A stretch of DNA of 64,000 bases from Thermoflexales bacterium (GTDB lineage Bacteria > Chloroflexota > Anaerolineae > Fen-1058), in NCBI GenBank assembly GCA_041740315.1, contig JBGSMF010000337.1, forward strand, positions 5,961-69,960, given 5' to 3'. A program made the position numbers and the translations under genes. Shown here one piece after another: positions 4,019 to 54,690 of the stretch; position 1 is the first letter of the stretch; each line of letters starts with the position of its first letter. The notes beneath the pieces are model-generated. The model had not been told where the DNA came from and did not search any database. It worked only from the letters and a program-made list of their open reading frames with translations.

Positions 4019-4858
4019 TTATTTGAATTTGACGTTGGCGAATGCGGCCATAAACTGGTCTTGCAAGAAAAAGTAAATGACCAGCAGGGGAGTGGTGATT
4101 ACAGCAATGGCAGCCCAGATTTTTTCGGCGTTCTCGCCCGGGATAGAGGTCTGGAACTGGTGCAAGCCTAGCTGGAGTGTCCATAGCTCAGGCTTGTTCA
4201 AATAGAGCAATGGGCCAAAAAAATCGTTCCAGCTCCCCATAAAGGTTAGAATAGCAACGGTTGCCAACGCCGGCCGAACCATGGGCACAATCACTTGCAA
4301 GAAGATAGTCGGCTCGCTGGCTCCATCCATGCGGGCCGCCTCGATCACTTCGTCGGGAATCTGGGACATGAATTGGCGCAGCAGGAAAATATTATAGATG
4401 CTGACGGCGCCGGGAATGATCAAAGACTGAAAGTGCCCCACCCAGCCCAGGCGATACAGGACGACATACGTAGGAATCAAAAACAAGATGCTGGGAATCA
4501 TCATCGTGCCCAGCATAAATGTGAAAATCTGTTGCCGCCCTGGAAAGGGGATTTTGGCCAAAGCATAGGCTACCAATGAGTCAAAGACCAGGTTGAGCAG
4601 CGTCACGCCGACGGCCAGGATGAGCGAGTTGCGAAAGAGCAGCGGGATGTTGAGCTCTGTGAACAAGGCCTGATACCCGGTCAGTACCCAGCGGCTGGGC
4701 AGATTCATGGGTTCGTGGAGGATTTCCGGGCCTGGCTTGAACGAGTTGATGACGATCAGAAAGAAGGGGTAAACCACCACTATCGCCCCAATAATCAAAA
4801 CCACATACATGAGCGCCTGAACCCCAAGAGATCGGCCGACGGGTTTCGATTGTTGCAT
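4019..4858 (-). CDS. Carbohydrate ABC transporter permease (CUT1, MalG-like)
   Basis: 279 aa, multi-TM, EAA-type loop (EAARMDGASEPTIFLQVIVP). Confidence 0.85.
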   Translation of the reverse strand: MQQSKPVGRSLGVQALMYVVLIIGAIVVVYPFFLIVINSFKPGPEILHEPMNLPSRWVLTGYQALFTELNIPLLFRNSLILAVGVTLLNLVFDSLVAYALAKIPFPGRQQIFTFMLGTMMIPSILFLIPTYVVLYRLGWVGHFQSLIIPGAVSIYNIFLLRQFMSQIPDEVIEAARMDGASEPTIFLQVIVPMVRPALATVAILTFMGSWNDFFGPLLYLNKPELWTLQLGLHQFQTSIPGENAEKIWAAIAVITTPLLVIYFFLQDQFMAAFANVKFK

Positions 4859-4873
4859 AATTTTTCTCCTGAT

Positions 4874-5767
4874 TTACTCGACATCCCGCTGGACAAAGCG
4901 GAACTGTAGGACGGTGGCGATTAAAATGATCACGGCCAGGCTTAGCCCTATTGCTGAAGCGTACCCCATGTTTGAGCGGTCGAACGCAGTGGCGTAAATG
5001 TACAGCACCGGCGTCAGCCCCTGGTGATACAATCCACCATACAAGTCAAAGACCATAAACGGCTCGGTGAACATTTGCAGACCATTGATGACATTCATGA
5101 CCAGCAGGAAAAGGATCTGCGGGTTGAGCTGGGGCAGGGTGATAGACCGAAATTGGTGCCAGCCGCTGGCCCCATCCAGGCTGGCAGCTTCGTAGAGTTG
5201 GGGGTCAATAGAATACAACCCCGCCAGCAGGATGACGGTCTGAATGCCAAACCACTTCCAGGTGTTGATCAAAGCCAATATCGGCATGGCCAGCCACTTT
5301 TGAAAAGCCCAAAAGACCGGCTCTGCCATGATCCCCAACTTGACCAAGGACATTTGAACAGGTCCCTGCGGACTGGCAATATAACCGCCGATGGACATGA
5401 CCACCACCACAGAAACAACGGTAGGAATGAAATAGATGGTGCGGAAAAGGCGGGCGCCCCAGCGAACTTCTTTCAGCAACACCGCCGTCCCCAATCCAAT
5501 GGACATTGAGAGGAAAATAAAAATGGCCTGATTGTAAACAATGTTGAACAGGCTGCGCAGAAACATGGGGTCGGTCAAGACCCTGACCCAGTTGCCCAAC
5601 CCCACAAAACTCATGCTTTCAGGTTGAACAAAATTGTAATTCAGAAAAGTCAAATAGAACGAGAGAACGAGGGGATAGATGCCAAACGCCGCGTAGAGAA
5701 TAACCCAGGGCGAGACAAAGATGTATCCCCAGCGGGCGCGGAAGACATGTTTCCAGAATTGGGTCAT
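4874..5767 (-). CDS. Carbohydrate ABC transporter permease (CUT1, MalF-like)
   Basis: 297 aa, multi-TM, EAA loop (EAASLDGASGWHQFRSITLPQL). Confidence 0.85.
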   Translation of the reverse strand: MTQFWKHVFRARWGYIFVSPWVILYAAFGIYPLVLSFYLTFLNYNFVQPESMSFVGLGNWVRVLTDPMFLRSLFNIVYNQAIFIFLSMSIGLGTAVLLKEVRWGARLFRTIYFIPTVVSVVVVMSIGGYIASPQGPVQMSLVKLGIMAEPVFWAFQKWLAMPILALINTWKWFGIQTVILLAGLYSIDPQLYEAASLDGASGWHQFRSITLPQLNPQILFLLVMNVINGLQMFTEPFMVFDLYGGLYHQGLTPVLYIYATAFDRSNMGYASAIGLSLAVIILIATVLQFRFVQRDVE

Positions 5768-5826: not shown

Positions 5827-7221
5827 TTATTTGCTCAATACGTCTCGGGCATTCTTGGCGGCCAGTGTCACACCCTCTTCGGGTGTTAACTTTCCTTCCA
5901 CCACCACCTGGGCATAAACTTTTAAGATTTCGTTGGCAGCAGCGTCAAACTTGGCAAACGCCTGTGGGAAGACCGCGTAAGGCAGCATATCCACAAAGGG
6001 TTTGTGCACCGCATCGGTAAAGAAGGGATCGTTCTTCAGAGACAACTTGACAGGCAGGTAGCCCAAATCCTTGCAGAAAGCCAGACTGTTCTCGTCGGTC
6101 ATGAGGAACTTGATAAATTCCCACGCCAACCGCTCGCGCTCTGGAGTGGACTTGAGGATCATGTAGGGGCGACCTCCCAGGGTCGTATAGGGCTGCATCC
6201 CCGCCTCGGGTACCGGCACGGGCGCAACCCCCACATCCTCGCCGATCACCATCGGCTTGCCTTTGGCGTCCTTCAAATTTGGCTGCCACGAGTAGCCATA
6301 TTGCAGCCACATGCCGATAGAGCGGCTGAAAAAGTTTTGCGACATGTCGGGCGGAGCGAATTTCTGGGCTTGTTGAGAAAACGCGAGGTATTCCTTCATC
6401 TTGCACTCGGCTTGATCAAAGGTGACATCGGTGCCAATCCGATTCAATAGGGCGCAGGCATTCTTGTTGTTGCTCAGGTAAATTGGCTGAAGCATGTTCC
6501 AATACCACCCGCCCCAGGTCAGCGCCTCGTTCCAAAACACTGTGCCGTACACCTTGGCGCCACCCTCGCGGGCGGGCAGGGCCGAAATTTTCTCGGCAGC
6601 GGCCAGAAATTCCGCCTGAGTTTTGGGCGGCTTGTCCGGATCCAGGCCAGCTTCTTTAAAGAGGTCTTTATTGTAGATCATCATGGTGATATCAATGCCG
6701 GCTGGCACATAGTATTTGTGGCCATAGTATTCCTGCACGGTGTTCGGGTCTAGTTCGGCAAACAACTCTTTGGAGCCGGGGAGGTTTTCCAATGGCAACA
6801 GAGCATCCATGGCGGCATATTTGGCAGGCATGTAGCCAAAGGAGCCTGTCATAATGTCAGGTTGGTTGCCGGCCGCGATCAGAGCTTCAAAAGCTCCGCC
6901 GGAAGGCTCCTCTTCAACGAGCACCTTGGTGCCTGGGTGGGCATCCATAAACTTTTTGGCTATCGGCCCCATGAATTCCATCATTGCGCCGCGCACCACG
7001 GCAATACGAATCTCGCCGGTGAGTGGTTCAGCCGTGGGTTCGGGCGCCGGTGTGGGGGTCACAACAACCTGAACGGTTTGCTTGACTTCTACTGGTTTGG
7101 TCACCACGACGGTTTCTTTGATGATTTCCGGCGTGGACACCGTCGCTTGCCCGCAGGCACTGAGCAGCAGGCTGATCATGATCAGCCCCACAAATACGTA
7201 ATACGCTCTAGAGCTTTTCAT
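5827..7221 (-). CDS. ABC transporter extracellular solute-binding lipoprotein (family 1, sugar)
   Basis: 464 aa, lipoprotein signal (LLLSACG), Thr/Pro/Val-rich linker, SBP_bac_1-like body. Confidence 0.8.
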   Translation of the reverse strand: MKSSRAYYVFVGLIMISLLLSACGQATVSTPEIIKETVVVTKPVEVKQTVQVVVTPTPAPEPTAEPLTGEIRIAVVRGAMMEFMGPIAKKFMDAHPGTKVLVEEEPSGGAFEALIAAGNQPDIMTGSFGYMPAKYAAMDALLPLENLPGSKELFAELDPNTVQEYYGHKYYVPAGIDITMMIYNKDLFKEAGLDPDKPPKTQAEFLAAAEKISALPAREGGAKVYGTVFWNEALTWGGWYWNMLQPIYLSNNKNACALLNRIGTDVTFDQAECKMKEYLAFSQQAQKFAPPDMSQNFFSRSIGMWLQYGYSWQPNLKDAKGKPMVIGEDVGVAPVPVPEAGMQPYTTLGGRPYMILKSTPERERLAWEFIKFLMTDENSLAFCKDLGYLPVKLSLKNDPFFTDAVHKPFVDMLPYAVFPQAFAKFDAAANEILKVYAQVVVEGKLTPEEGVTLAAKNARDVLSK

Positions 7222-7310
7222 TTTTTCCTCCTACACTGATAGAGATTTAAGCTTGGGGAAATGAGTATGCATTGGTTTGTTTTGAACTCAATATCTAACC
7301 TCCTGATATG

Positions 7311-7326
7311 ATGTAAGCCCTTACAT
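7311..7326. promoter_or_regulatory. LacI-type palindromic operator upstream of the ABC operon
   Basis: ATGTAAGCCCTTACAT, near-perfect 16-bp palindrome of the TGNAANCGNTTNCA class, overlapping a weak minus-strand promoter (TTGTAA-17-CATCAT). Confidence 0.55.
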
Positions 7327-7385
7327 TTACTTACAAAATTGTATCCTATTAAAAAGGATTACTGGTAGTTAACCTGAGAATATGT

Positions 7386-8423
7386 TCATGCGCTCTTGTC
7401 AGGCCAGGTGGGGCACCCGCAGGATTGCCGTATCATCAAGCTGGTTGCCAGTCTCTCATGGCGGAAGGGCGCATCCGGATTTTGCAGCCGGTCAAATAGC
7501 AACCTCACAGCTATTTCTCCCAGTAACTGCATTGGCTGGTGCACAGTGGTCAAGGTGGGGTGAACCAGAGCAGCCACTTGGATGTCGTCAAAGCCAATGA
7601 CTGCCAGGTCTTGCGGTATCAAGCGCCCCTTCTGTTGCGCCGCATCTATTGCGCCTACCGCCATTTCATCGTTGGCTGCCAAAATCGCAGTAGGGGGTGA
7701 CGCAGCTTCCAAAAGCTGTATTGCCGCAATTCGGCCCCCTTCATACTGGAATCTGCCAGAAATCGTCAATTCTTTGAGCTGGGCGAGTTTGGCATCTTGA
7801 AGGGCGGTCTGATAGCCTTGCATCCGCTCCATGTTGTCAGGAGAGTTAGCTGGTCCAGAGATAATGGCTATCCGTTGGTGTCCATGTGCGATCAAATGGG
7901 CAGCAGCTTCGTATGCGCCGGCGCGGTTATCTACGACGATAGTGTCACATAGGATAGCATTGCTGGGCCGGCTTAGGAGGACAGATGGAACACCTTGGTT
8001 ATGCAGTGACCAGAGTGTTTCATCGTCAACGCTGCGCGCCATGATGATGAGGCCATCCACCTTGCTGGTCAGCTTACGCAAGAAACGCCCACTGCTTTCT
8101 TTGCCATGGGTGCCATAGATCAGGACGTTGTTGTTATAGCGCCCAGCTTCCTGCTCTACACCCCGAATGACCGTTGAATAAAATGGCCCGGATATATCAG
8201 GGAATACCAGGGCAATCGTATCAGTTTTTTGGCAAGCTAATCGGCGCGCTGATGGATTGGGCTCAAAATGTAATGCTTCAACTGCCAGCATTACCTTCTG
8301 GCGAGTTTCCGGCGCCACGTTGGGGCTGCCAGCCATGGCACGGGACACGGTTGCAATAGAAACTCCAGCGTGTTGAGCGACGGTATAAACTGTTGCCTTC
8401 TTTTTTGACATTGTGTTTCGCAT
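7386..8423 (-). CDS. LacI-family transcriptional repressor
   Basis: 345 aa; N-terminal HTH (ATVYTVAQHAGVSIATVSRAM) plus periplasmic-binding-protein-like sugar-binding domain. Confidence 0.9.
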   Translation of the reverse strand: MRNTMSKKKATVYTVAQHAGVSIATVSRAMAGSPNVAPETRQKVMLAVEALHFEPNPSARRLACQKTDTIALVFPDISGPFYSTVIRGVEQEAGRYNNNVLIYGTHGKESSGRFLRKLTSKVDGLIIMARSVDDETLWSLHNQGVPSVLLSRPSNAILCDTIVVDNRAGAYEAAAHLIAHGHQRIAIISGPANSPDNMERMQGYQTALQDAKLAQLKELTISGRFQYEGGRIAAIQLLEAASPPTAILAANDEMAVGAIDAAQQKGRLIPQDLAVIGFDDIQVAALVHPTLTTVHQPMQLLGEIAVRLLFDRLQNPDAPFRHERLATSLMIRQSCGCPTWPDKSA

Positions 8424-9139: not shown

Positions 9140-10574
9140 GCCCCAACAAATGACCAGTGGCCGAAAACAACTTGATCAGCAGCGGCCAGGTCAACACCAG
9201 GTCGTAGCCCCAATTAGCCAGTGTCAGGGCAATGAGCGCCGCCACCGTAATCTTTTGCCATCGGCTGTGCCAGTGTGGCGCGCCGGCCAGGACAGCCATA
9301 AAGGGCACCAATGTCAGGTGAAAACGCTCCTCGGCCATGGTCAGCATGTGGACGGCAATGTAATAGCCGATGAACAGCGCCACCAGGGCCTTGGCCTTGT
9401 TCCACGGCGTGTTGCATGTGCCTGCAATCGCCAGGGGCAGCAAAAACGCCAGCGGCAGGCACAACGCCAGCAGAACGATTGCCAGTAGCCAGGCAGGCCA
9501 ATGCCCAAGAATGTTGTTGCTGTAAAAGTACATGGGCACACGTTTTTCCAGCGCCCAAAAATGACCCAGTTTGCGCAGGGCCAGGTAAGGCACGCGGGCG
9601 GGGTCGGCCTGGATAAATTCCAGCGCCTTTTGTCGCCCAATCGCATCTCGCTCCATATCGTCCATAATTGTCAGCAAGTCGAGCGAGATGCCATATTGAA
9701 ATGTGCCACTACCCTGCGGGTGATAGCCCAGGTACAGGTTATAGCCCAGGCTGGTTTCAACAAAAGTCAGCTTGCCGTGCAGTAGGGTGTTGCGCACCGA
9801 CCAGGGAATGACGACCACAGCAAAGCTTGTCAGCAATATCGCAGCAGACTGTAGCCTCTTGGAGCGCCACACCCATAGCGCAGCGATAAGCGCAAATCCC
9901 ACCACAATTGAGCGCGTCAGTGTTGCGGCCCCCAGCAGCAAGCCGGCCAAGGCGAAATCGCGCCTTTGTTTGGCCCGCGCCAAGGCTAGCACCGAATAAA
10001 GCAATAGCGGCCAAAACAGATTCTCGCTTGCCAGCCCAAGCGGGTACATTGCCAGAGTTGGGTACACCGCCACAACCAGCGATGCGATGCGGCTGGCACG
10101 CTGGCTGCGGCCCAGGCGGCGCGCCAACAAATAGCTGCCTGGCGCCAGCAGCGCGCCCAGAATCGCCTGGATATAGCGAGCTGCAAAAAAGCGCCCCGGC
10201 AGGCCGCTGAGCAGGTACACGCCGGCCAAAAAAAATGGGTACAGTGGAGCGCGAAAAGAAGTGAGCACGCCGCGCGGGTCGTAATCGGGCGGTACAGGGA
10301 TAGATATATAGCGTGTGATGAGGTCTAAATCGGGCTGGGCATACCAGCGATAGCCTTGGCCGGCGATTAGGCTGCGCGCCAGCATGTCGTACTGGAACAT
10401 GTCATCCAGTCCAATGCCCAGGTGCCGCGTTGCCACCACTGGAGCCAGGCGCACAACCAAGGCGAGGATAAATATCCACCAACCCGTTTTATACAGTTTC
10501 ACCGTCACCTGATTGATTCTTGGTAACTGCTCACCCTCCCGCAGGTTTGAATGTTTTTGGATGTGCATGGACAC
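9129..10574 (-). CDS. GT-C fold membrane glycosyltransferase (GT39/ArnT/PMT-like)
   Basis: 481 aa, about 11 TM segments, N-terminal loop GIGLDDMFQYDMLARSLIAGQGY typical of PMT_2/ArnT-like enzymes. The first 17 codons lie inside a MITE (10523-10644); an alternative native start is GTG at 10508. Confidence 0.65.
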   Translation of the reverse strand: MSMHIQKHSNLREGEQLPRINQVTVKLYKTGWWIFILALVVRLAPVVATRHLGIGLDDMFQYDMLARSLIAGQGYRWYAQPDLDLITRYISIPVPPDYDPRGVLTSFRAPLYPFFLAGVYLLSGLPGRFFAARYIQAILGALLAPGSYLLARRLGRSQRASRIASLVVAVYPTLAMYPLGLASENLFWPLLLYSVLALARAKQRRDFALAGLLLGAATLTRSIVVGFALIAALWVWRSKRLQSAAILLTSFAVVVIPWSVRNTLLHGKLTFVETSLGYNLYLGYHPQGSGTFQYGISLDLLTIMDDMERDAIGRQKALEFIQADPARVPYLALRKLGHFWALEKRVPMYFYSNNILGHWPAWLLAIVLLALCLPLAFLLPLAIAGTCNTPWNKAKALVALFIGYYIAVHMLTMAEERFHLTLVPFMAVLAGAPHWHSRWQKITVAALIALTLANWGYDLVLTWPLLIKLFSATGHLLGLNY

Positions 10575-10644
10575 TTGACCAGGATCGCCGGCCCGCCCAG
10601 GCAGCCAATTTTGTAACCTGCGGGAGGGTAGGCTGAGTAATTAC
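10523..10644. mobile_element. MITE copy 3 (GTAACTNCTCAG-terminus family)
   Basis: Termini GTAACTGCTCAC... and ...GGCTGAGTAATTAC, extended imperfect inverted repeats (CACCCTCCCGCAGGTT / AACCTGCGGGAGGGTA). Flanked by GATTCTTG (10515-10522) and GATTTTTG (10645-10652), 7/8 identical. Confidence 0.6.
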
Positions 10645-10984
10645 GATTTTTGATTGCTCTTGTGACTGACAATGTGGGCATGATAGCACATAACACTGGG
10701 ATTGGGCAGCGGTGCACCGTTCGATACACCACAGATTTCCAAACCCTCTACATGGGTACTAGGGTTGTATAATAGTTTCTTCAGCCTGGATTTTGCTGTT
10801 CGAGCATAGGAATACGCGAACGTCCTCAACAATCGGCTTGCATGGGGATGCAGACCTACGGATGCGGAAAATGAGCTTGGCTGTTGCACACCATAGCGAG
10901 AACCCTCCACTTGCACACCAATGTTGTAAAATGAATGTGTGCATGATAGATGAATAAAGGACAAGATTAAAGGACAAAACATAA

Positions 10985-13522
10985 ATGCAAGACAAAATCA
11001 GTATCAAGGGCGCGCGCCTACATAATCTGAAAAATATTACTTTGGACATTCCCAAAAACAAACTGGTTGTTTTGACCGGCCTATCCGGGTCAGGCAAATC
11101 TACGCTGGCCTTTGACACGCTGCACAAAGAAGGTCAGCGGCAATACATGGAATCGCTGGGGCTGGTCACAGGTGGGTTGAGCAAGCCACCGATGGATTCC
11201 ATTGAAGGGCTGTCTCCGTCCATTTGCATTGACCAGCATCTCACCAATCGCAGTCCGCGCTCAACCGTCGGCACAGCGACAGAAGTGTTTACCTATCTGC
11301 GTGTGCTTTATGCTCGGGCCGGCCACCGGCAGTGTCCGGCTTGCGCGGCAGATATACCGCCATCTCACGCTGTCAATGGCGAAGCGTGGGATGACGAACC
11401 GGGCCAAGCCAGCGAAGCGGAGGCTGACACTTATCCTTGCCCTGCCTGTGGCGCGCCAGTGCCCGAAATGGGCATGGCGACTTTTTCTTTTAATAAACCG
11501 GCCGGGGCGTGCCCCACTTGCACCGGATTGGGCGTGATATACACACCCAATCTAGCCCAGTTGATTGACGCAGAGCAGAGCATCTTGACGGGGGCGGTCA
11601 ACGGCTGGGATATTTATACCATCAAACGAAACTCGGAGACTCTACAAGCCGCCGGCAAGCATTATGGATTTACCTTTGACCCTGCCCAGCCCATCAAGAG
11701 TCTGGATCCAGTGCAGCAGGATTTGCTATTGCACGGTGTAAATAGCCCACAGTTTCGCCGTCATTACCCAGATGTCAAACTGCCCGAAACAGTCAGCCGA
11801 GGGTATTTTGAGGGCGTCGTCACCAACCTTTTGCGTCGGTACGCAGAACACATTCAAGATCCCGATTACCTCGAAAAGATGGATCGGTTTTTGTACCAGC
11901 AAATTTGTCCGGACTGCGGCGGAACCCGCCTGCGCCCGGCCAGCCGCCAGGTGCGAGTGGCCGGCCAGTCCATCGTTGACATATCGCGGCTGCCGCTGGT
12001 TGATCTGGCAGAGTGGCTCGCGCGCCTGACGGGTAACCTGTCACCCGAAGAACAGTGCATCGCCGAACCTGTTTTGGCCGACTTGCATAGCCGGGTTCAA
12101 CGCTTGGTGGATGTCGGCGTGGGCTATCTGACGCTGGAACGTTCTTCGCCCACTCTATCCGCCGGCGAAGCGCACCGCCTGCGCCTGGCGGCGTTATTGG
12201 GGTCTGGCCTGACAGGCGTTTTGTATGTTCTCGATGAGCCAACCATCGGACTGCACCCTTGCGATACCATGCGGCTCATCAAGGTACTGCGCCAACTGCG
12301 CGATTTAGGCAACACGGTATTGGTCATCGAACACGATTTGGACATGCTGCGCGCAGCCGACCATGTTGTAGATATTGGCCCGGGTGCTGGCCGTGCCGGC
12401 GGGCAGGTGGTGGTAGCCGGCTCGCCCCAGGCTGTGGCCGACTGTCCCAATTCCATCACTGGCGATTATTTGTCTGGTCGTTCGTACATTCCGCTGCCCC
12501 CCACTCGGCGCGCTGGCAACGGCAAGCAATTGACGATCAAGGGCGCGCGCGCCCATAATTTGAAAAATATTACGGTCAACTTGCCATTGGGCAAGTTGAT
12601 TGCCATCACCGGAGCATCTGGATCGGGCAAGTCTTCGTTAATGTTTGATATTCTTGACTGTGCAGCCCGCCAGCGTTTCTACGGCGCCCGCGATGTTCCA
12701 GGCGAGCACGATGCCATTGAAGGCTGGGAACACCTGGACAAAATTGTCACCATAGATCAAAGCGCCATTGGGCGCTCGCCCCGCTCCAATGCGGCCACAT
12801 ACACCGACGCCTTTACACCCATTCGCGCCGCATTCGCGGACACGCCTGAGGCGCGTCACCGTAAACTGACCCCCCGGCACTTTTCTTTCAACGTGCCGGG
12901 GGGGCGCTGCGAAAGATGCGAAGGCGCTGGTGTATTGGCAGTCGAGATGCACTTTTTGCCAGACGTCCAGGTGCGCTGCCCAGCCTGCCACGGGCGGCGT
13001 TTCACGCGTAAAGTGTTGGCGGCGCAGTATCGCGGGCGCGACATTGCCCAGGTGCTCGACATGACAATCGAAGAATCGCTGGCATTATTCCAAGATGTGC
13101 CGGCAGCGGCGGATAGGTTGGCCTTGATGGTTGACGTCGGTCTGGGTTATTTGCAATTGGGACAACCGGCAACAACGCTCTCTGGCGGCGAAGCGCAACG
13201 CGTCAAGCTGGCAAAAGAATTGAGCCGCCGCGCCACCGGCCGCACGCTCTACCTGCTGGATGAGCCGACCACCGGGCTGCATGTGGCCGATACAGCCCGC
13301 TTGCTGACTTTGCTGCATCGCCTGGTGGAAATAGGCAACACTGTCATCGTCATAGAGCATAACCTGGATGTGATCAAAGCCGCCGATTGGATCATTGACC
13401 TGGGGCCGGAGGGGGGACAGGCTGGCGGCCAGCTTGTGGCAGAGGGAACGCCGGAGCAGGTAGCGCAAGTGGGGCTTTCACGCACAGGATCGTTTTTGCG
13501 CCAGATATTTGTGCTATCCTAG
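10985..13522 (+). CDS. UvrA-family ABC ATPase, class II-like paralogue lacking the UvrB-binding domain
   Basis: 845 aa; ISIKGARLHNLKNITLDIPKNKLVVLTGLSGSGKSTLAFDTL, two ABC modules, Zn modules. Only about 35 residues lie between CPAC and CPAC preceding FSFNKPAGACPTCTGLG, where canonical UvrA carries a ~130-aa UvrB-binding insert. Confidence 0.8.
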   Translation: MQDKISIKGARLHNLKNITLDIPKNKLVVLTGLSGSGKSTLAFDTLHKEGQRQYMESLGLVTGGLSKPPMDSIEGLSPSICIDQHLTNRSPRSTVGTATEVFTYLRVLYARAGHRQCPACAADIPPSHAVNGEAWDDEPGQASEAEADTYPCPACGAPVPEMGMATFSFNKPAGACPTCTGLGVIYTPNLAQLIDAEQSILTGAVNGWDIYTIKRNSETLQAAGKHYGFTFDPAQPIKSLDPVQQDLLLHGVNSPQFRRHYPDVKLPETVSRGYFEGVVTNLLRRYAEHIQDPDYLEKMDRFLYQQICPDCGGTRLRPASRQVRVAGQSIVDISRLPLVDLAEWLARLTGNLSPEEQCIAEPVLADLHSRVQRLVDVGVGYLTLERSSPTLSAGEAHRLRLAALLGSGLTGVLYVLDEPTIGLHPCDTMRLIKVLRQLRDLGNTVLVIEHDLDMLRAADHVVDIGPGAGRAGGQVVVAGSPQAVADCPNSITGDYLSGRSYIPLPPTRRAGNGKQLTIKGARAHNLKNITVNLPLGKLIAITGASGSGKSSLMFDILDCAARQRFYGARDVPGEHDAIEGWEHLDKIVTIDQSAIGRSPRSNAATYTDAFTPIRAAFADTPEARHRKLTPRHFSFNVPGGRCERCEGAGVLAVEMHFLPDVQVRCPACHGRRFTRKVLAAQYRGRDIAQVLDMTIEESLALFQDVPAAADRLALMVDVGLGYLQLGQPATTLSGGEAQRVKLAKELSRRATGRTLYLLDEPTTGLHVADTARLLTLLHRLVEIGNTVIVIEHNLDVIKAADWIIDLGPEGGQAGGQLVAEGTPEQVAQVGLSRTGSFLRQIFVLS

Positions 13523-46815: not shown

Positions 46816-46940
46816 GTAACTACTCAGCCGGCACCCTTCGACCTGTCTGCCGACAGAGCAGGCTACGCGCCGCGCATCCTGAGCGAAGTGAAACGCAGTC
46901 GAAGGAGCGCGGCGCTCCGCTCAGGATGCTGAGTAGTTAC
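46816..46940. mobile_element. MITE copy 1 (GTAACTNCTCAG-terminus family)
   Basis: 13-bp perfect terminal inverted repeats GTAACTACTCAGC / GCTGAGTAGTTAC. Flanked on both sides by the 8-bp direct repeat ACAAAAAC (46808-46815, 46941-46948). Interior has nested palindromes (GCATCCTGAGCG 46874-46885 / CGCTCAGGATGC 46918-46929). Confidence 0.7.
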
Positions 46941-46951
46941 ACAAAAACTAT

Positions 46952-48040
46952 CTATGCCAGCGGTTTGGCTCTATTGCGGTTGAGGCGCAAAAAAGGTTCT
47001 TCACCCTCCAGGCTGCCGTAGCAGACCTGAGCAGAAGCTTTGCAGCCCCCCTGGCACTCGTTGCGCAGCGCGCAGGGCGCGCAAAAGGCCGGCACAGCGG
47101 CGACAAAACCTGCCAGGCGAGCGGGGGCGATGATGTGGGCGAATGGCTCGTCCCAGGCATTGCCCAAGATGGTGGGCGTGTGATTGCACGGGCGCACATT
47201 GCCCGCCGTGTCAAGCGTGTAATAGGCGCGGCTGGAACCGGCGGCGCAAAACCCAAAGCCCAGGTGCGGGTAAGCCGAGTTGTCTATCAGGCAGGGCTGA
47301 ATGGGGATGGAGCACGCCACCGATAGCTTGAACTCTTGGGTGGCGGCCTCGGCCACCTCTAACGCGGCGCGCATTTCTTCCACAGTCGGCAGCAATTCTT
47401 CAATATTCCCCGCCCCTCGCCCTCCAGGGTTGAAACGGTTTAGCATCACCCCGCGCACGCCAAAAGCAAAGGCCAGTTTGAGCGTATCGTGCAGGTGGGC
47501 AATGTTATGGCGGGTGGCCACAAATACGGCCACGGCCTGCCCCTGATGATAGCGAATGTGCGCCAGCGCCGCCAGCACCGCGTCGAACGCGCCCGTAGCG
47601 CCAGACAGCGCATCGTGCGCCTCGCGGCGAAAGCTGAGCAGCGGCAGCTCAAACAACCCCACCCCGCGCTCAATCAACTCGGCTGCCAACTCGTCGGTGA
47701 GGAGATGGCCGTTGCTGATGAGGTTGACGCGCGCGCCACGCTCGGCCAGAAAGCTGACAATGTCCGGCAGGTCGGGGCGCAGCAGCGGCTCGCCGCCGGT
47801 CAGCGTGACGTGAGTGCAGTCTATCTGGTCGAGGACGTGAGCCAGCAGCGGACGCACGTCGGACCTCTCTTTCCCCCTAGGCCCCCCTTCCTCTTTCGGC
47901 GAGAGAGGAAGGGGAGCAGTGGAAAGCGCAGAGGGGGTGGCGGGGTCAGGGTGGTTCCAATAGTTGTAGCAATGCAGGCAGGCGTGATTGCAGGCCGGGG
48001 TGACTTCGAGAATGATGGTTTGCAGGCGCGGGCGGGTCAT
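46952..48040 (-). CDS. Radical SAM / SPASM-domain protein-modifying enzyme (anSME/QhpD-like architecture, no RRE domain)
   Basis: 362 aa; CNHACLHCYN (CxxxCxxC) at residues 17-24, GGEPLL, C-terminal SPASM cysteines (CAAG...RPC...CAPCALRNECQGGC). The start codon overlaps the stop of the upstream gene (ATGA). Confidence 0.85.
   Translation of the reverse strand: MTRPRLQTIILEVTPACNHACLHCYNYWNHPDPATPSALSTAPLPLSPKEEGGPRGKERSDVRPLLAHVLDQIDCTHVTLTGGEPLLRPDLPDIVSFLAERGARVNLISNGHLLTDELAAELIERGVGLFELPLLSFRREAHDALSGATGAFDAVLAALAHIRYHQGQAVAVFVATRHNIAHLHDTLKLAFAFGVRGVMLNRFNPGGRGAGNIEELLPTVEEMRAALEVAEAATQEFKLSVACSIPIQPCLIDNSAYPHLGFGFCAAGSSRAYYTLDTAGNVRPCNHTPTILGNAWDEPFAHIIAPARLAGFVAAVPAFCAPCALRNECQGGCKASAQVCYGSLEGEEPFLRLNRNRAKPLA
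47884..47914. repeat. Intragenic pyrimidine-run/purine-run hairpin inside the radical SAM ORF
   Basis: CCCCTTCCTCT ttcggcgag AGAGGAAGGGG. It encodes part of ...PLPLSPKEEGGPRGKERS... between the CxxxCxxC and GGEPLL motifs. Confidence 0.6.
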
Positions 48041-48726
48041 TTTTGCTCCACTAGCAGCCTGGCCAAAAGGCGCGCTGCCTCAGCCGATTCGGGCGGGATA
48101 TCCATCTCCAGTTCGGGCCACTGGGGATAAGCTTGAGCAGCCTGCCCTGCTTGCAGCACGGCGTCAATAAAAGCCTGCTCTTCCTCGTCGGACATTGCCA
48201 GGAAGGCAATGTCTCGCTCGATGGCAGCCTGGGCCTGGGCAACGACGGCCGGGTCAAGGCTGCTGCGCTGCGACATTTCGATGAGCGCCTGGGCCTGTTG
48301 GGCCAGCTCGTCGCTGCTTTGAGAGCCATAGACGGGGCCGGGCGAGGGTTTGTAACAAGTGACGCCCGAATTGAGCATCCAGATGTGGTGGGCCGCCGCT
48401 TCAAAAGCGGCTTGCATATCTTGGGCCACAGCAGAGTCGAGCTGCCCGGCTTGCGCCAGCTTGTCTAGCGCCGCGCGGTGGTTGGCGATCAGGCTTTCCA
48501 GCGTCTTTTGGCCAAGCTCACCTTTGGGGGCATCTTGGGCCAACTGCTTTAGCCCCACCCACTGCGCGCGCACGCTGGCCCAATCGTCGCCTTGGCTGCC
48601 TTTTGCTGGGGTGGGCTCAGAGGTCACCGCTGCATAGCAGGTTGTCTGGGGTTGGCAGCTAGCCAGCGCCAGCGATGCCAGCAGCACTCCCGTATTGCGA
48701 AGAAATTCTCGCCGACTAGGTTTCAT
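48037..48726 (-). CDS. Tat-signal (lipo)protein, T-C-Y motif family, paralogue 1
   Basis: 229 aa; MKPSRREFLRNTGVLLASLALASC (SRRxFL twin-arginine motif + lipobox). TCY at Cys30 and Cys124. Helical A/Q/E/L-rich body; C-terminal DIPPESAEAARLLARLL. Confidence 0.75.
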   Translation of the reverse strand: MKPSRREFLRNTGVLLASLALASCQPQTTCYAAVTSEPTPAKGSQGDDWASVRAQWVGLKQLAQDAPKGELGQKTLESLIANHRAALDKLAQAGQLDSAVAQDMQAAFEAAAHHIWMLNSGVTCYKPSPGPVYGSQSSDELAQQAQALIEMSQRSSLDPAVVAQAQAAIERDIAFLAMSDEEEQAFIDAVLQAGQAAQAYPQWPELEMDIPPESAEAARLLARLLVEQK

Positions 48727-48737
48727 TTGGCCTCCTT

Positions 48738-49382
48738 TTACTTGTCCAGCAACAAATCTACCAGCAGGCGCGCCGCCTCGGCAGATTCGGGAGGAATATC
48801 CAGATCAATTTCGGTGAGGGAGGGAAACTTTAACGAATCGCCAGCGGCATCCCTCACGGCTTTGGTGAGCGAGGTCTTTTCGCTCTCTGGCATAGCCAGG
48901 AAGGCAATGTCGCGCTCGATGGCGGTTTGGGCCTGAGCGACGGTGGCGTTGTCAATGTTGCTGCGCTCAGACATCTCTAGCAGCGCCTCGGCCTGTTTAG
49001 CCAAGTTGCTGCTGCTCTCGACCTGATACTCGGGCCCTATCATCGGCTCGTAGCAGGTGATGGGGGCGTTGGCCCGCCAGACGTGGTAAGCGGCGCCGTC
49101 AAAGGCGGCTTGCATATCCTCGGCCACGGCAGAATCCAGCTTGCCGGCGGCCACCAGCCGGTCTAACGCGGCGCGATGTTCGGCGGCTAGGCGCTGGCGT
49201 GTCTTGTCGCCACGGTCGGCATCTTGGGCGTCTTGGGCCAGGCCTTCCAGCCCGGCCCACTGTTGGCGCAGGTCGTCCCAATCGTCGCCCTGGCTGCCGC
49301 CTGGGATGGCGCAGCGCGCTGCGGCCAGAGCTGCCAGCGCAATGCCAAGGCGCTGAAGAAATTCACGGCGGGTGGTAGACAT
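48738..49382 (-). CDS. Tat-signal protein, T-C-Y motif family, paralogue 2
   Basis: 214 aa; MSTTRREFLQRLGIALAALAAARC; TCY at Cys110; the same conserved blocks (AVAEDMQAAF, AQAQTAIERDIAFLAM, DIPPESAEAARLL). Confidence 0.75.
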   Translation of the reverse strand: MSTTRREFLQRLGIALAALAAARCAIPGGSQGDDWDDLRQQWAGLEGLAQDAQDADRGDKTRQRLAAEHRAALDRLVAAGKLDSAVAEDMQAAFDGAAYHVWRANAPITCYEPMIGPEYQVESSSNLAKQAEALLEMSERSNIDNATVAQAQTAIERDIAFLAMPESEKTSLTKAVRDAAGDSLKFPSLTEIDLDIPPESAEAARLLVDLLLDK

Positions 49383-49392
49383 ATTCTTATCC

Positions 49393-50067
49393 TCACTGTT
49401 TCAGCAATAGCCACACCAAGATGCGCGCGGCCTCGATTTCTTCTGGCGCAGCCTGGATAGTTTCTAGCTCGTCAGGCTGTTGGCCCGCGCCAAATTGCGA
49501 TAGCCAGGCAATATCACGTTCGAGCGCGGCCTGGGCCTGGGCAATCGTGGCCGATTCGAGATTGCTTTGGCCGGCCATCTCGGTCAGCGCGGCGGCCTGC
49601 TGCGTCAGATCCTCGCGTGGGTTGAATTCGGGTGGCAGGGCGATGTAGCAGGTGGCCATTTGGCGTTGGATGTGGGCGATGGCCTGCTCGAACGCCACGC
49701 CGATTTCTTGGGCCACGGCGGCCTCTAGCTCGCCGCCGGCAACCAAAGCGTCAAGCGCCTGGGTATGCCGTTGGCGCAGCTCACGGGAGAAATCCGTCTC
49801 TTCGTAAGATTGGAGCTGCTTGTTTTTCAGGCTCAGCCAACAATCTCTAAGCGTGCCCCAGTGTGGGCTTGCGCCCAGGGCAGGGGTGGGTGTAGGTGGC
49901 ATGGCTGTGTAGCACGTCATGGGCGCTGTAGGGGTAGGTTCGACCATTTCATAGCACGTGACAAATGGCGTTGGGGTCAGCCGGCGCGTCAATCCGCAGC
50001 CTGTGGTCAACAGGGCTGCCAGCGTGACGCCAAAAGCGCGGATAAACTCGCGGCGGGTGGGTTCCAT
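49393..50067 (-). CDS. Tat-signal (lipo)protein, T-C-Y motif family, paralogue 3
   Basis: 224 aa from ATG 50065-50067 (GGAG 6 nt upstream); MEPTRREFIRAFGVTLAALLTTGC; TCY at Cys38, Cys52 and Cys140. The track start 50103 lies inside a MITE. Confidence 0.75.
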   Translation of the reverse strand: MEPTRREFIRAFGVTLAALLTTGCGLTRRLTPTPFVTCYEMVEPTPTAPMTCYTAMPPTPTPALGASPHWGTLRDCWLSLKNKQLQSYEETDFSRELRQRHTQALDALVAGGELEAAVAQEIGVAFEQAIAHIQRQMATCYIALPPEFNPREDLTQQAAALTEMAGQSNLESATIAQAQAALERDIAWLSQFGAGQQPDELETIQAAPEEIEAARILVWLLLKQ

Positions 50068-50081
50068 TTTCTTCTCCTTTG

Positions 50082-50202
50082 GTAACTGCTCAGGCATGTG
50101 CATTTATCTCACCACTAAGGACACCAAGGACACTAAGTAGATTTCCTTTGTGTACTTTGTGCCCTTTGTGGTAAAAAAAATGAGCTATGGCTGAGTAGTT
50201 AC
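50082..50202. mobile_element. MITE copy 2 (GTAACTNCTCAG-terminus family)
   Basis: Termini GTAACTGCTCAGGC / GGCTGAGTAGTTAC (12/14 complementary). Flanked by the perfect 8-bp direct repeat CTCCTTTG (50074-50081 and 50203-50210). Interior is a long imperfect palindrome (ccactaaggacaccaaggacactaag / ctttgtgtactttgtgccctttgtgg). Confidence 0.7.
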
Positions 50203-50288: not shown

Positions 50289-50324
50289 CCAAAATAAAAA
50301 ACGCCGGGGAGAATGCCCCGGCGT
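50289..50324 (-). terminator. Intrinsic terminator of the FtsK-like operon
   Basis: Minus strand: ACGCCGGGG cattct CCCCGGCGT followed by TTTTTATTTT. Confidence 0.65.
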
Positions 50325-50397
50325 CGCACTTTTAACGCAAGCGGGTAGCCTGCGTGTGCGCATTATGTTTTGAACTGCCTGGTTACAAACTGCCTGC

Positions 50398-50687: not shown

Positions 50688-50996
50688 CTAATCACGCTCG
50701 AAATATTCGACATGCCAGGAATTCTTTTTGACGTCTTGGTAAAGCTCAAAGCGGCCCTCTGCGCAGCGCACGCGGAAGCAATGCCGCTCTACCTCCCACA
50801 GCCAGCGATGCGATACCGTCCAACATCGCTCGACAGCGTGCACATCGTAACGCCTTCCCCGCCAGATAAAGCACTGTGGGAAATAGCCAAAACGCTTGGC
50901 TTCCATTCTGATTTTTTCACCCTGTGGACGCCGTCGCCGAGCATGCGAGCGGGCGCCAGACTGTTTGCTGTTTTGTCTAAATAATGTGATGCTCAT
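50688..50996 (-). CDS. Hypothetical basic, Trp/Arg-rich small protein
   Basis: 102 aa (FGYFPQCFIWRGRRYDVHAVERCWTVSHRWLWEVERHCFRVRC), 17 nt downstream of the FtsK-like gene. Confidence 0.4.
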   Translation of the reverse strand: MSITLFRQNSKQSGARSHARRRRPQGEKIRMEAKRFGYFPQCFIWRGRRYDVHAVERCWTVSHRWLWEVERHCFRVRCAEGRFELYQDVKKNSWHVEYFERD

Positions 50997-51013
50997 GGGT
51001 TATGATCTCCTCT

Positions 51014-52045
51014 TTAATGAGAAACTAGATTCCAACTGCGCATTCCGTTGTTCAATTGCTCAACCAATTGCCTGCCTTCGGCGGGTGTGGCAAAAGCGGC
51101 CTGAAAACGCCACAGCGCGCCTTGAGCTATGCCAATAAAATCGCCGCGCCCCTTGAGCTTTTCTGCGCCGCTTTCTGCCAGGCCGGTTGCAGCATAGGCT
51201 TCATCCGAGTTGCCAACTTTGCCTACCAAACGCACCGGAAAAGCGGTTTGCGCCAGCGCCTCCGATGATGTTATGGTTATGGGCGGCTTTTGGGCGCAGG
51301 CAATGACGTGGATGCCGGCCCATCGCCCACGCTGGGTCAGGCGCGCCAGGGCCTGGGGCACATGGTCGCCAGCTATTTGCAACAATGGGTCTGTTTCATC
51401 TATAACAACAACAATGCGAGGCGCGCGGGTTTGGGTGCGCTCGCGTGTTTCTACCAAGCGCACCAGTTCATCTAGCGCGTCAAGCGCGTCGTTGACATTT
51501 TGGATTACAGGCCATAGCAGATGAGCAAGTTGGCCCAAATGGCCAAGCGCACGCTGCTTGGGATCAATAAGGACGAACATCAACTGGCTGCGGCGATGTG
51601 ATAGCGCCAGGCTAAGAATGATGGTTTGAGCCAGGGTTGTCTTGCCTGAACCCAGTGTGCCGAGGATATGAATGTGGCCAACCACTGGGCTGGGTAGGCG
51701 AACCAGCAATGGCGCGCCATCGTCAACGATGCCCAGCAAAGCCGTGAAAGAGGGTATTGGGTGACCAAGCCGCAAATAGGATTGCAGCAACTCAACCAGG
51801 CGAGTTGGCAAGTTGTGCGCAGTATGCCTTGGTTTGGACAAAAGGGTGAATGATGCGCCAGCGATCATTGCCAATTCTTTTGCCAGCCTTTGCACTCTAT
51901 TGGATGGGGCAGTGAGATGTGGGAACAAGCTCAGGTTGGCAGCATGAGATGATAAATAGCTCACCATGCGAGTGGGTTCGCTATATGGCTGCCGCGATAA
52001 TTCTGTACAAGTTGAATTTGTTTGAAACAATTGAGGTGCTTGCAT
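51014..52045 (-). CDS. FtsK/SpoIIIE-family ATPase domain protein without membrane anchor
   Basis: 343 aa; Walker A GTLGSGKTT, Walker B IVVVIDETD, GRWAGIHVIACAQKP, GRGDF; the start may be an internal Met. Confidence 0.65.
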   Translation of the reverse strand: MQAPQLFQTNSTCTELSRQPYSEPTRMVSYLSSHAANLSLFPHLTAPSNRVQRLAKELAMIAGASFTLLSKPRHTAHNLPTRLVELLQSYLRLGHPIPSFTALLGIVDDGAPLLVRLPSPVVGHIHILGTLGSGKTTLAQTIILSLALSHRRSQLMFVLIDPKQRALGHLGQLAHLLWPVIQNVNDALDALDELVRLVETRERTQTRAPRIVVVIDETDPLLQIAGDHVPQALARLTQRGRWAGIHVIACAQKPPITITSSEALAQTAFPVRLVGKVGNSDEAYAATGLAESGAEKLKGRGDFIGIAQGALWRFQAAFATPAEGRQLVEQLNNGMRSWNLVSH

Positions 52046-53502: not shown

Positions 53503-54690
53503 ATGAAGAAGAACGTGTTTGCTGTACTCGCCCTGTTGGTTGTGGCAGGCATGCTGTTGAGCGCCTGCGGGACCGCTGCAACCCCAACCGCAGCCCCTGA
53601 GGCCAAGAAGGTTACCCTGTCGCTCTGGCATTCGTATCACACTGGCGGTTCGGAAGAGCAGGCCATCACTCAAATCGTTGAGGCGTACAAGGTAGCCAAT
53701 CCGAACGTGACCGTTGACATGCAGAATATCCCGTTCGATCAGATCTTTAACAAGTGGAAGACCGACGCTGCTTCGGGCGGCGCGGCGGCCGACATGTTCA
53801 CCGCCCCCAACGACGACCTGGGCAACTGGGTGCGCGCCGGCTTGGTTCTGCCGCTGGATGACCTGCTGGCTGGCAAGCTGGACAAGGTTTCTACGGCCGG
53901 CGTTAACGGCGTAAAGGTAGACGGCAAGATTTATGCGGTGCCGGGCATCATCAAGGCCGTGGCGCTGTACTATAACAAAGACAAGGTGCCCACCCCGCCC
54001 AAGACCACCGATGAATTGCTCCAAATGGTCAAGGATGGCAAGGTGCTCGTTTTGAACCAGAACGCTTACCACAACTTTGGTTTCTTTGGCGCGTTCGGCG
54101 GCAAGTTGATGGACGATACTGGCAAGTGCATCGCCGACCAGGCTGGTTTTACCGAAGCGATGCAATACCTGGTTGACTTGAAGGCGGCCGGGGCCAAGTT
54201 CGAGACTGATGGCGGCAAGGCCGACACAATGTTCCGCCAGGGCCAGGCCGACATGATCGTCAACGGCCCGTGGGTGTTGGGCGATTACAAGAAGGACCTG
54301 GGCGACAAGTTGGGCGTTGCCCCGATTCCGGCTGGCAAGGCTCCCGCTTCGCCATTGGCCGGCATTGATGGCTTTTATATCAACCCGAACAGCAAGAATG
54401 CCAAGGAAGCCGTTGACCTGGCGCTGTACATCTTTAGCGCCGAGGGATTAAAGATCTATGCCGATGTGGCTGGCGATCCGCCCGTGATGGACATTACGCT
54501 GGCTGACCCATTGGTCAAGGCTTTTGCCGATGCTGCGGCGACCGGCTTCCCTCGCCCGCAGAGCGCAGAGTTTGGCAATTACTGGGGTCCATTTGGTGAT
54601 ATGGTCACCAAAGTCTTGGAAGGCAAGGCTTCGCCCGCCGATGGTGTGAAAGAGGCTTGCGCCGCCATGAACACGGCGAACAAAAAGTAG
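53503..54690 (+). CDS. Maltose/maltodextrin-type (MalE-like) solute-binding lipoprotein
   Basis: 395 aa; lipobox LLSACG; WHSY...QIFNKWKTDAASGGAAADMF...GPWVLGDYKK pattern of MalE-like SBPs. Confidence 0.8.
   Translation: MKKNVFAVLALLVVAGMLLSACGTAATPTAAPEAKKVTLSLWHSYHTGGSEEQAITQIVEAYKVANPNVTVDMQNIPFDQIFNKWKTDAASGGAAADMFTAPNDDLGNWVRAGLVLPLDDLLAGKLDKVSTAGVNGVKVDGKIYAVPGIIKAVALYYNKDKVPTPPKTTDELLQMVKDGKVLVLNQNAYHNFGFFGAFGGKLMDDTGKCIADQAGFTEAMQYLVDLKAAGAKFETDGGKADTMFRQGQADMIVNGPWVLGDYKKDLGDKLGVAPIPAGKAPASPLAGIDGFYINPNSKNAKEAVDLALYIFSAEGLKIYADVAGDPPVMDITLADPLVKAFADAAATGFPRPQSAEFGNYWGPFGDMVTKVLEGKASPADGVKEACAAMNTANKK

Follow-up and report, generated by a model that had tools for sequence, protein, structure and literature searches.

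Several described radical S-adenosylmethionine (SAM)/SPASM enzymes serve as points of reference for the locus analysed here. Sulfatases are matured by anSME and AtsB at a short Cys motif, C-x-P-x-R, in which the Pro and the Arg are recognition determinants, and PqqE and MftC each act on an invariant Tyr together with a partner residue. QhpD, in turn, installs Cys-to-Asp/Glu thioethers in QhpC in the cytoplasm, before the substrate reaches the periplasm, in a single-turnover, stoichiometric reaction; QhpC carries a 28-residue leader that is needed for QhpD binding and is cut by QhpE, and it is exported via the ATP-binding cassette transporter QhpF (PMC7876137). The known Cys-Tyr protein cofactors are all listed as autocatalytic in a 2025 review (PMC11951088). 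The locus in question is an operon within a 64,000-nucleotide stretch, referred to below as the window, from a Thermoflexales bacterium of the Anaerolineae (Chloroflexota; contig JBGSMF010000337.1, positions 5,961 to 69,960), in which three genes for proteins with a twin-arginine translocation (Tat) signal and the tripeptide T-C-Y, termed TCY proteins, are followed by the gene of a radical SAM/SPASM enzyme.

The pairing of TCY proteins with this enzyme is probably a new protein-modification system. In the preferred reading, to which a probability of roughly 60% is assigned, the operon is a two-component protein-maturation cassette whose enzyme modifies the Cys-Tyr dyad of the upstream-encoded proteins before their export by Tat. 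The initial annotation had already proposed that the enzyme acts on its neighbours as substrates, these being entire exported proteins from a family it did not recognise, and comparative sequence evidence supports this proposal well.

Organization of the operon and its products

The operon consists of four tightly packed genes, which are listed below in their order of transcription with window coordinates; family scores refer to the TCY-family hidden Markov model (HMM), and AF2 denotes AlphaFold2.

49393-50067, minus strand: P1, TCY-family protein of 224 aa (open reading frame and translation; family HMM score 190.9)
48738-49382, minus strand: P2, TCY-family protein of 214 aa (family HMM score 311.6; TIGR01409, 18.0 bits)
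48037-48726, minus strand: P3, TCY-family protein of 229 aa (TIGR01409, 17.1 bits; AF2 model)
46952-48040, minus strand: radical SAM/SPASM enzyme of 362 aa (Pfam Radical_SAM, E=4.8e-20)

The open reading frames (ORFs) bear out the layout first annotated: gaps of 10 nt (P1-P2) and 11 nt (P2-P3) separate the three upstream genes, and the stop codon of P3 overlaps the start codon of the enzyme gene in an ATGA, which suggests translational coupling of the enzyme with its last putative substrate gene. Shine-Dalgarno-like sequences (AAGGAG, GAGGA, AAGGAGG and GGAG, respectively) are located 5' of P1, P2, P3 and the enzyme gene; the one of P1 stands 6 nt before the ATG at 50067, and an alternative ATG at 50103 is without a Shine-Dalgarno sequence. 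Because the gene upstream of the operon ends in an intrinsic-terminator-like hairpin (50300-50325) and the downstream gene holA is convergent to it, P1, P2, P3 and the enzyme gene form a unit of their own.

The three upstream products are paralogous, P1 matching P3 in BLASTP with E=3e-28 and P2 being matched by P3 with E=1e-60, at aligned identities of 43-56%; P2 is the paralogue nearest to the family consensus. All three N-termini follow M-x-x-(S/T)-R-R-E-F-(L/I), with the Tat motifs TRREFIR (P1), TRREFLQ (P2) and SRREFLR (P3), and each protein has a Cys24, in agreement with the initial annotation. No other ORF of the 64-kb window carries a strict Tat motif, and the TIGR01409 Tat-signal model (cutoff 16.7) is passed by P2 and P3, with no match for P1. 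The cysteines are C24, C38, C52, C76 and C140 in P1, C24 and C110 in P2, and C24, C30 and C124 in P3, so that, Cys24 aside, six of the seven sit in T-C-Y, as had also been noted; Thr and Tyr each having a frequency of a few percent, this enrichment, judged from the sequences, cannot be chance. The positions of these residues are as follows.

49645-49653, minus strand: central T-C-Y codons of P1 (residues 139-141), in the family column with Cys and Tyr at 98% each
49050-49058, minus strand: central T-C-Y codons of P2 (residues 109-111), the sole T-C-Y of P2
48352-48360, minus strand: central T-C-Y codons of P3 (residues 123-125), in a predicted flexible interhelical loop
49909-49959, minus strand: two additional T-C-Y of P1 (residues 37-39 and 51-53), in the Pro/Thr-rich N-terminal linker
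48634-48642, minus strand: additional T-C-Y of P3 (residues 29-31), in the N-terminal linker
49996-49998, 49311-49313 and 48655-48657, minus strand: Cys24 codons of P1, P2 and P3, respectively
T-C-Y-bearing peptide in the P1/P2 context: ...NAPITCYEPMIGPEYQ...

In its AF2 model, P3 is predicted to be all-helical, with nine helices and a predicted local distance difference test (pLDDT) score of 75.8, and the TCY loop (residues 124-134) falls below a pLDDT of 50 between confidently modelled helices. A Foldseek comparison of the model with the PDB gave no fold match (best E=0.87).

The fourth product carries the cluster motif CxxxCxxC at residues 17-24 (C17, C21 and C24), which is 100% conserved in 85 orthologues, and matches Pfam PF04055 with 72.8 bits against a cutoff of 29.5. 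Its SPASM cysteines are C243, C250, C265, C285, C320, C323, C329, C333 and C340; the pattern C265-x13-G-x4-C285 ... C320-x2-C323-x5-C329-x3-C333-x6-C340, together with the upstream C250, is 96-100% conserved throughout, with C250, C265, C285, C320, C323, C329 and C333 at about 100% in the same orthologues and C243 and C340 less so. The motifs of both the radical SAM superfamily and the SPASM subgroup were found, which places the protein in each, and three Fe-S clusters are predicted from the cysteine set. PF13186 (SPASM) is recorded in many orthologues, the window enzyme itself giving no match at E<0.01, and further near-invariant residues are Tyr273, Asp277, Arg283, Asn286 and His287. The cluster motif begins as early as residue 17, and no N-terminal domain of the RRE/PqqD type (RRE, the recognition element of RiPPs, peptides that are made by ribosomes and modified after translation) is present in the enzyme. 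The description of the enzyme in the initial annotation, including its RRE-less architecture, is thereby confirmed.

The enzyme model has a pLDDT of 89.6 apart from residues 33-57 (window 47870-47950), a Pro/Ser/Gly-rich insert that is disordered in the model; across orthologues, this insert, which separates the cluster motif from the remaining barrel, measures 0 to about 60 residues. All Foldseek matches of the model are radical SAM enzymes (probability 1.00), and the template modelling (TM) scores of 0.56-0.68 to SkfB, BlsE, SuiB, PqqE and anSME make it appear about equidistant from these, the scores to SkfB, SuiB, PqqE and anSME all lying at 0.63-0.68; the match to anSMEcpe is full-length (TM 0.68/0.68), an extra domain of SuiB stays unmatched (TMt 0.57), and the StsB model aligns only from position 139. 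By sequence, the best NCBIfam matches are GeoRSP (92 bits), PqqE (86.2), AhbD (86), NirJ2 (81) and MftC (75.6), compared with cutoffs of 400 for GeoRSP, 381 for PqqE, 500 for AhbD and 265 for MftC, and the enzyme remains below every curated cutoff. AhbD, NirJ1, NirJ2 and AhbC are all among these best matches, at 64-86 bits, and anSME and QhpD are absent from the 25 best NCBIfam families, which puts anSME below 40.7 bits. The best PDB sequence match is PqqE, with 63 bits over the full length in a profile comparison, and anSMEcpe reaches 35 bits in the SPASM part only. At least 1216 proteins are orthologous at E<=1e-30, the best 120 of them being 57-100% identical. On these scores and models, the protein appears to be a SPASM enzyme of no described family, and the check for a known clade, which had been set as a possible objection to the enzyme-substrate proposal, returned none.

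Conservation of the dyad and of the gene pair

A word-indexed search of 5.8 billion proteins yielded 49 relatives of the TCY proteins when one sequence served as the query and 348 when a profile did; every one is named 'hypothetical protein' and is devoid of Pfam domains. Searching 1.84 billion cluster representatives exhaustively with HMMER gave 542 TCY-family clusters (50% identity) at E<=0.001. Pfam and NCBIfam return nothing for P1-P3 besides the Tat signal, and neither holds a curated model for the TCY protein or for its enzyme; the substrate family that had not been recognised at first is thus equally without a match in Pfam, NCBIfam and the PDB. Two kinds of Pfam match were rejected as noise: FAD-SLDH, which is confined to the Tat-signal region, and the scattered matches to FIMAH (17 of 50 members, best E=0.0014) and DUF4202, all at E>=0.001.

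Conservation was calculated from 366 unique family members in P3-type numbering, in which the central dyad is Cys124/Tyr125. Both residues of the central loop are conserved at 98%, compared with a mean column identity of 29-50%, and the conservation of T-C-Y that had been put forward as a check is thereby evident for the Cys and the Tyr. The Thr of the motif (Thr123) stands at 85% and the Pro that follows it at 55%, giving a consensus of (P)-(I/M/V)-T-C-Y-x-P at the dyad site. In the Tat region, R5 and R6 are each found in 99% and F8 in 98% of members, and Cys24 in 89%; elsewhere, Arg53 (94%), Trp56 (99%), His83 (99%), His114 (94%), Gln144 (96%) and Asp172 (94%) stand out, and the C-terminal helix is conserved as well (A217 99%, L225 94%). 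Additional C-Y copies occur in the linker of 37% of the 330 full-length members, one in 97 proteins, two in 22 and three in 3, and these copies keep the flanks (T)-C-Y-x-P inside otherwise unconserved Pro/Thr-rich segments after the signal peptide. Such recurrence of T-C-Y-x-P in unconserved linkers looks like the behaviour of a short enzyme-recognition motif.

The family alignment also bears on the two remaining kinds of cysteine. The seventh cysteine of P1-P3, Cys76 of P1, does lie outside T-C-Y, as annotated, but it is not a stray residue, since its context R-D-C-W corresponds to an R-x-C-W position of the family at which 67% of members have Cys; P2 and P3 have lost it. The reading of Cys24 as lipobox-like, by comparison, fails across the family: although LASC in P3 fits a lipobox and TTGC in P1 does so in part, AARC in P2 does not, and the usual context is [LM][AT]-R-C, 71% of members having Arg at -1; this fits neither the canonical lipobox ([LVI][ASTVI][GAS]-C) nor, in any obvious way, a site of signal peptidase I. 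A standard lipobox (LSAC) is used elsewhere in the window, in the ORF at 53503-54690. Cys24 might mark a site of processing, serve as an anchor or itself be modified.

The pairing of the two genes is close to obligate. Among 35 TCY-seeded loci with enough sequence (12 genome loci, 21 informative metagenome loci and 2 contig look-ups), the enzyme gene is located directly downstream in 34, namely on the same strand in 12/12 genome loci and in 20/21 metagenome loci reaching far enough, and in 2/2 long contigs looked up (L092 and L093); TCY homologues without an adjacent enzyme gene, for which a neighbourhood survey had been proposed, are therefore almost never seen. The enzyme-seeded scan, with one genome per GTDB species, confirmed 316 relatives, and the best 80 of these were retrieved; in 73 of 79 such loci a family HMM match is found directly upstream on the same strand, with one to four TCY genes per locus. 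In all-versus-all clustering of the neighbouring ORFs, the TCY family and the enzyme are the only conserved families; RRE proteins, proteases and transporters are not among them. Short metagenome contigs labelled Halioglobus, Rickettsiales and Thermoanaerobaculia carry Chloroflexota-like sequences and are possible binning errors.

Orthologues of the enzyme with 44-49% identity are found on contigs that are attributed to Planctomycetota, Lentisphaerae, delta-proteobacteria and Armatimonadota, among others. The proteins encoded upstream of them match the TCY family HMM weakly or not at all, and at 13 of the 16 loci concerned the upstream protein keeps [T/S/L]-C-Y, in most cases with x-P or x-M after it; some of these partners are two-repeat proteins with one C-Y per repeat. 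Equivalents of His83 and His114 are not conserved in the distant partners. At locus L091, on a Planctomycetota contig, the only candidate partner is a 33-aa ORF (4778-4879, MAGKLYNIRNQPAIFPPAIFEQRIEQVKQNCYD) that lies 80 nt upstream of the enzyme orthologue and ends in QNCYD, and enzymes of the same superfamily may use it as a peptide-sized substrate; at L084, no C-Y candidate was found upstream. Across phyla, the adjacent Cys-Tyr pair appears to be the one feature that tracks the enzyme.

At the non-Chloroflexota loci L076, L078, L079, L082 and L083, the C-Y proteins differ at the N-terminus, where two helices take the place of a plain Tat signal: a hydrophobic helix is followed by K/R-R-R-F/L, a second hydrophobic helix and a lipobox-like Cys (TGC, AGC or TAC). 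C-terminal HEAT-like repeats are seen in some of them (L082 and L083).

Several features of the surroundings vary among the loci. In L093, an inserted ParE toxin and HTH antitoxin pair (6876-7501) separates the TCY gene from the enzyme gene, and both of these are kept. An FdhD-NarQ gene stands directly 3' of the enzyme gene in L092 (8536-9315, overlapping it) and L093 (8664-9458), as well as in L005, L026 and L030, and in 6 loci the TCY genes are preceded by one for a transketolase; with FdhD in 5/93 loci and transketolase in 6/93, the pattern was set aside as probable lineage synteny, a link to molybdoenzyme maturation being the less likely reading. An ORF of L075 (4245-5978) in which a TCY protein and the enzyme seem fused was set aside as most likely an assembly error of a long-read metagenome-assembled genome, its junction and C-terminus being frame-shifted.

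In the window itself, the neighbours of the operon are an FtsK-like ATPase, a DUF6504 protein, a 78-aa ORF and holA, and inspection of these neighbours revealed no peptidase or exporter, in line with the initial annotation. The FtsK/SpoIIIE-like ATPase (343 aa), the DUF6504 protein and a small ORF adjoin the operon at 50688-52045. In L092, an FtsK-like gene resembling it, with three small ORFs behind it (10251-12501), lies a few genes downstream of the enzyme gene, past FdhD and LexA. In both the window and L092, holA is nearby as well, which makes this a conserved local synteny. One further element flanks the operon.

46816-46940, minus strand: 125-nt structured inverted-repeat element with arms GTAACTACTCAGC, directly 3' of the stop codon of the enzyme gene

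Three exact copies of the 13-mer GTAACTACTCAGC occur in the window compared with 0.02 expected, all of them flanking the operon: two are the hairpin arms and the third lies at 50190-50202, upstream of P1. The 125-nt element contains a nested inverted repeat and has an RNA folding energy of -72.5 kcal/mol (z=-5.1). It has no Rfam match, and Rfam and tRNA scans of the whole window were both empty. The element is probably a terminator or an mRNA-end/stability element, or else a small mobile/REP-like repeat.

A candidate maturation cassette and its alternatives

In the proposed mechanism, a cytoplasmic radical SAM/SPASM enzyme without an RRE would act on the products of one to four upstream genes, which would be helical proteins of about 200 aa with a twin-arginine signal. 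Its target would be the invariant Cys-Tyr dyad in an exposed loop between helices, with further copies in the Pro/Thr-rich linker, and recognition would rest on a short linear motif, presented by flexible stretches of a chain that is still nascent or only loosely folded. Modification would take place in the cytoplasm, where SAM and reductant exist, and the finished protein would then be exported by Tat, so that neither a leader peptidase nor a dedicated exporter would be required. The product might be a Cys-S-to-Tyr thioether or a small ring, i.e., a rigid unit that is maybe redox-active or metal-binding; MftC with its Val-Tyr pair and the sacti/ranthi-synthases would be the analogues. The initial annotation had placed the modification on the cysteine; the Cys is indeed invariant, but the invariant unit is the Cys-Tyr dyad, which favours chemistry with the Tyr over formylglycine. 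Because the invariance of the Cys is matched by that of the Tyr, and the two always adjoin each other while Thr and Pro vary, a reaction using both residues is favoured, and with it a crosslink involving Cys and Tyr. The presence of PqqE and MftC, both Tyr-modifying, among the best profile matches of the enzyme is counted on the same side.

In the Chloroflexota, the invariant His83, His114, Asp172, Gln144 and Trp56 suggest a defined site around the dyad, possibly for a metal or for redox chemistry. A more specific proposal, namely that a covalent Cys-Tyr unit (thioether or ring) installed by the enzyme forms, together with His83, His114, Asp172 and Gln144, the redox or metal centre of a new Tat-exported helical family, is doubtful at present.

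Several points weigh against the preferred reading. The substrate relationship would be one of guilt by association, and Tat export is a prediction from the signal motif. At one TCY-seeded locus (L111), the sole exception to the pairing, an unrelated 205-aa gene occupies the position of the enzyme gene. His83 (99%), His114 (94%), Trp56, Gln144 and Asp172 are as conserved as the dyad in the Chloroflexota family, and such conservation would also fit a metal or cofactor site served by a cofactor-making radical SAM enzyme; the best NCBIfam matches include AhbD and NirJ, which are tetrapyrrole enzymes. Moreover, all eight SPASM cysteines for full ligation of both auxiliary clusters are present. From the CteB structure, thioether-forming enzymes reportedly tend to leave the auxiliary cluster I site open for the substrate thiolate, and the complete set mildly disfavours a CteB-like mechanism of the sacti/ranthi type. 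A literature search gave no precedent for an i,i+1 Cys-Tyr link; i,i+1 chemistry as such is known from MftC, whose targets are a neighbouring Val and Tyr.

Formylglycine-type oxidation of the Cys alone is ranked second for the chemistry. An anSME-like enzyme would oxidise the motif Cys to formylglycine, dehydroalanine or D-Cys, and Thr, Tyr and Pro would serve recognition only. The architecture agrees with this (about 360 aa, no RRE, a full SPASM set with eight conserved cysteines), as do the full-length structural match to anSMEcpe mentioned above, the nature of the candidate substrates, which are whole signal-bearing proteins, as sulfatases are, and not leader-core peptides, and a short, linear motif with Pro in its context. 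Nevertheless, such an oxidation is unlikely, given that anSME scores below 40.7 bits in NCBIfam and its PDB profile matches with 35 bits in the SPASM part only, that the motif is T-C-Y-x-P instead of C-x-P/A-x-R and sits in helical proteins without a match to any sulfatase family, and that the Tyr is as invariant as the Cys across phyla while Thr (85%) and Pro (55%) vary, for which the Tyr as a reactant is the better fit.

Alternatively, the enzyme might make or tailor a small molecule (e.g., a tetrapyrrole) that the TCY apo-proteins bind via His83, His114 and the Cys/Tyr, folding round it in the cytoplasm and hence requiring Tat. Tat is the usual export route for cofactor-loaded proteins, and the Tat signals of the TCY proteins fit this route; the two near-invariant His of the helical bundle, taken with its Cys, Tyr, Asp and Gln, resemble a ligand set, and AhbD, NirJ1, NirJ2 and AhbC match the enzyme at 64-86 bits. 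These scores, however, are no higher than those of the peptide-modifying PqqE and GeoRSP and far under the cutoffs, and no further cofactor-pathway genes are conserved nearby. The His residues are lost outside the Chloroflexota while the C-Y dyad is kept, the T-C-Y copies in disordered Pro/Thr linkers could form no pocket there, and the distant locus L091 offers only a 33-aa ORF ending in NCYD, all of which leaves the cofactor route quite unlikely.

Treating the TCY proteins as very long precursors of a classical RiPP, from which C-Y peptides would be excised by a protease encoded elsewhere, with the helical domain leader-like, is improbable. RiPP loci typically vary in how often the motif recurs within a protein and encode several paralogous precursors in one operon, the NHLP and Nif11 classes show that leader domains can be long, and L091 supplies a 33-aa candidate peptide. 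Against these stand the lack of a conserved protease or transporter in any of about 120 loci, the conservation of the whole helical domain down to the C-terminal helix (A217 99%, L225 94%), the position of the main motif in the middle of the fold rather than in a terminal core, and the Tat signal (RR 99%), which implies the export of folded proteins.

Lastly, it is highly improbable that there is no enzyme-substrate relation at all (TCY proteins as accessory, regulatory or scaffold proteins, or mere synteny, with the target of the enzyme unlinked), for although the link rests on gene context, one TCY locus is an orphan and extra synteny (FdhD, transketolase) exists in some lineages, the adjacency, strand and stop/start overlap persist across Chloroflexota classes and other phyla while the flanks change, the toxin-antitoxin insertion in L093 left the pair in an operon, and a partner cannot, once it has been exported, serve a cytoplasmic Fe-S enzyme.

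If the pairing is real, the Cys-Tyr cassette would be a new post-translational modification system with a sharp signature, a Tat signal plus a T-C-Y-x-P loop, that is spread over at least about 80 species-level genomes of poorly studied and largely uncultured lineages (Anaerolineae and relatives), with divergent versions elsewhere. It would carry radical SAM/SPASM maturation beyond short, leader-dependent peptides to proteins that are folded and exported by Tat, and would do so without an RRE, a protease or an exporter, in which only anSME and QhpD come close at present. It would also provide a function for a wholly unannotated extracytoplasmic protein family and, should the enzyme indeed install a covalent Cys-Tyr unit, the first enzymatic, oxygen-independent route to a Cys-Tyr protein cofactor.

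Comparison with known systems

The anSME/AtsB enzymes resemble the window enzyme in being radical SAM/SPASM proteins of about 360-370 aa without an RRE, with a full-length TM of 0.68 to it, and, in the preferred reading, in acting in the cytoplasm on a short linear Cys motif of a whole signal-bearing protein before export, with no leader peptidase or exporter. They are nonetheless remote in sequence (35 bits, SPASM only; outside the NCBIfam top 25), and their substrates are sulfatases with C/S-x-P/A-x-R, whereas the TCY proteins are helical and present T-C-Y-x-P without an Arg. The adjacent Tyr is invariant here, and the operon is near-obligate and often contains several paralogues of the putative substrate.

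The analogy with QhpD that was drawn in the initial annotation would hold for a radical SAM enzyme acting on a protein in the cytoplasm and encoded in one operon with it; it is looser than supposed in that QhpC needs a leader, QhpE and QhpF (PMC7876137). An operon of the qhp type, with qhpA/B/C besides the protease QhpE, QhpF and QhpG, is not recovered here; QhpE, QhpF and QhpG, all needed there, are absent, both across the loci and among the window neighbours. The TCY proteins have Tat signals, are about twice as long as QhpC, helical, and contain one to four C-Y dyads and no Cys/Asp/Glu pairs, and QhpD lies outside the top NCBIfam matches of the window enzyme.

PqqE and MftC are closer in sequence, PqqE being the best PDB match (63 bits) and the NCBIfam scores reaching 86 (PqqE) and 76 (MftC) bits, but the window enzyme is far below their cutoffs of 381 (TIGR02109) and 265 bits (TIGR03962). 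Both need the RRE proteins PqqD or MftB and act on peptides of 20-30 aa that become free cofactors, whereas here the operon has no RRE gene, the putative substrates are exported proteins of about 200 aa, and the motif is internal. Clustering of the neighbouring ORFs revealed no conserved partner resembling PqqA, PqqD/RRE proteins, MftA (with its C-terminal Val-Tyr) or MftB.

Sactisynthases and ranthisynthases have an N-terminal RRE, a short leader-core precursor and a protease or exporter, none of which is found here; the domain layout of the window enzyme (no RRE, about 360 aa) is like that of anSME and PqqE and unlike that of the RRE-bearing SuiB and CteB. GeoRSP (TIGR04303) is the top NCBIfam match, yet at 92 bits the enzyme falls below the cutoff of 400 and is not a member. 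As with GeoRSP and with TIGR04133 ('rSAM with lipoprotein'), this is an uncharacterised SPASM enzyme defined via a conserved neighbouring target gene. GeoRSP has PqqD-family and SPASM partner proteins of its own, which are absent here. Literature on radical SAM enzymes, Tat, Chloroflexi, Cys-Tyr and adjacent thioethers yielded no description of the TCY-enzyme pair. A radical SAM/SPASM maturase next to its target is thus a known arrangement; new are the class of substrate, the motif, the lack of the usual accessory genes and the likely chemistry.

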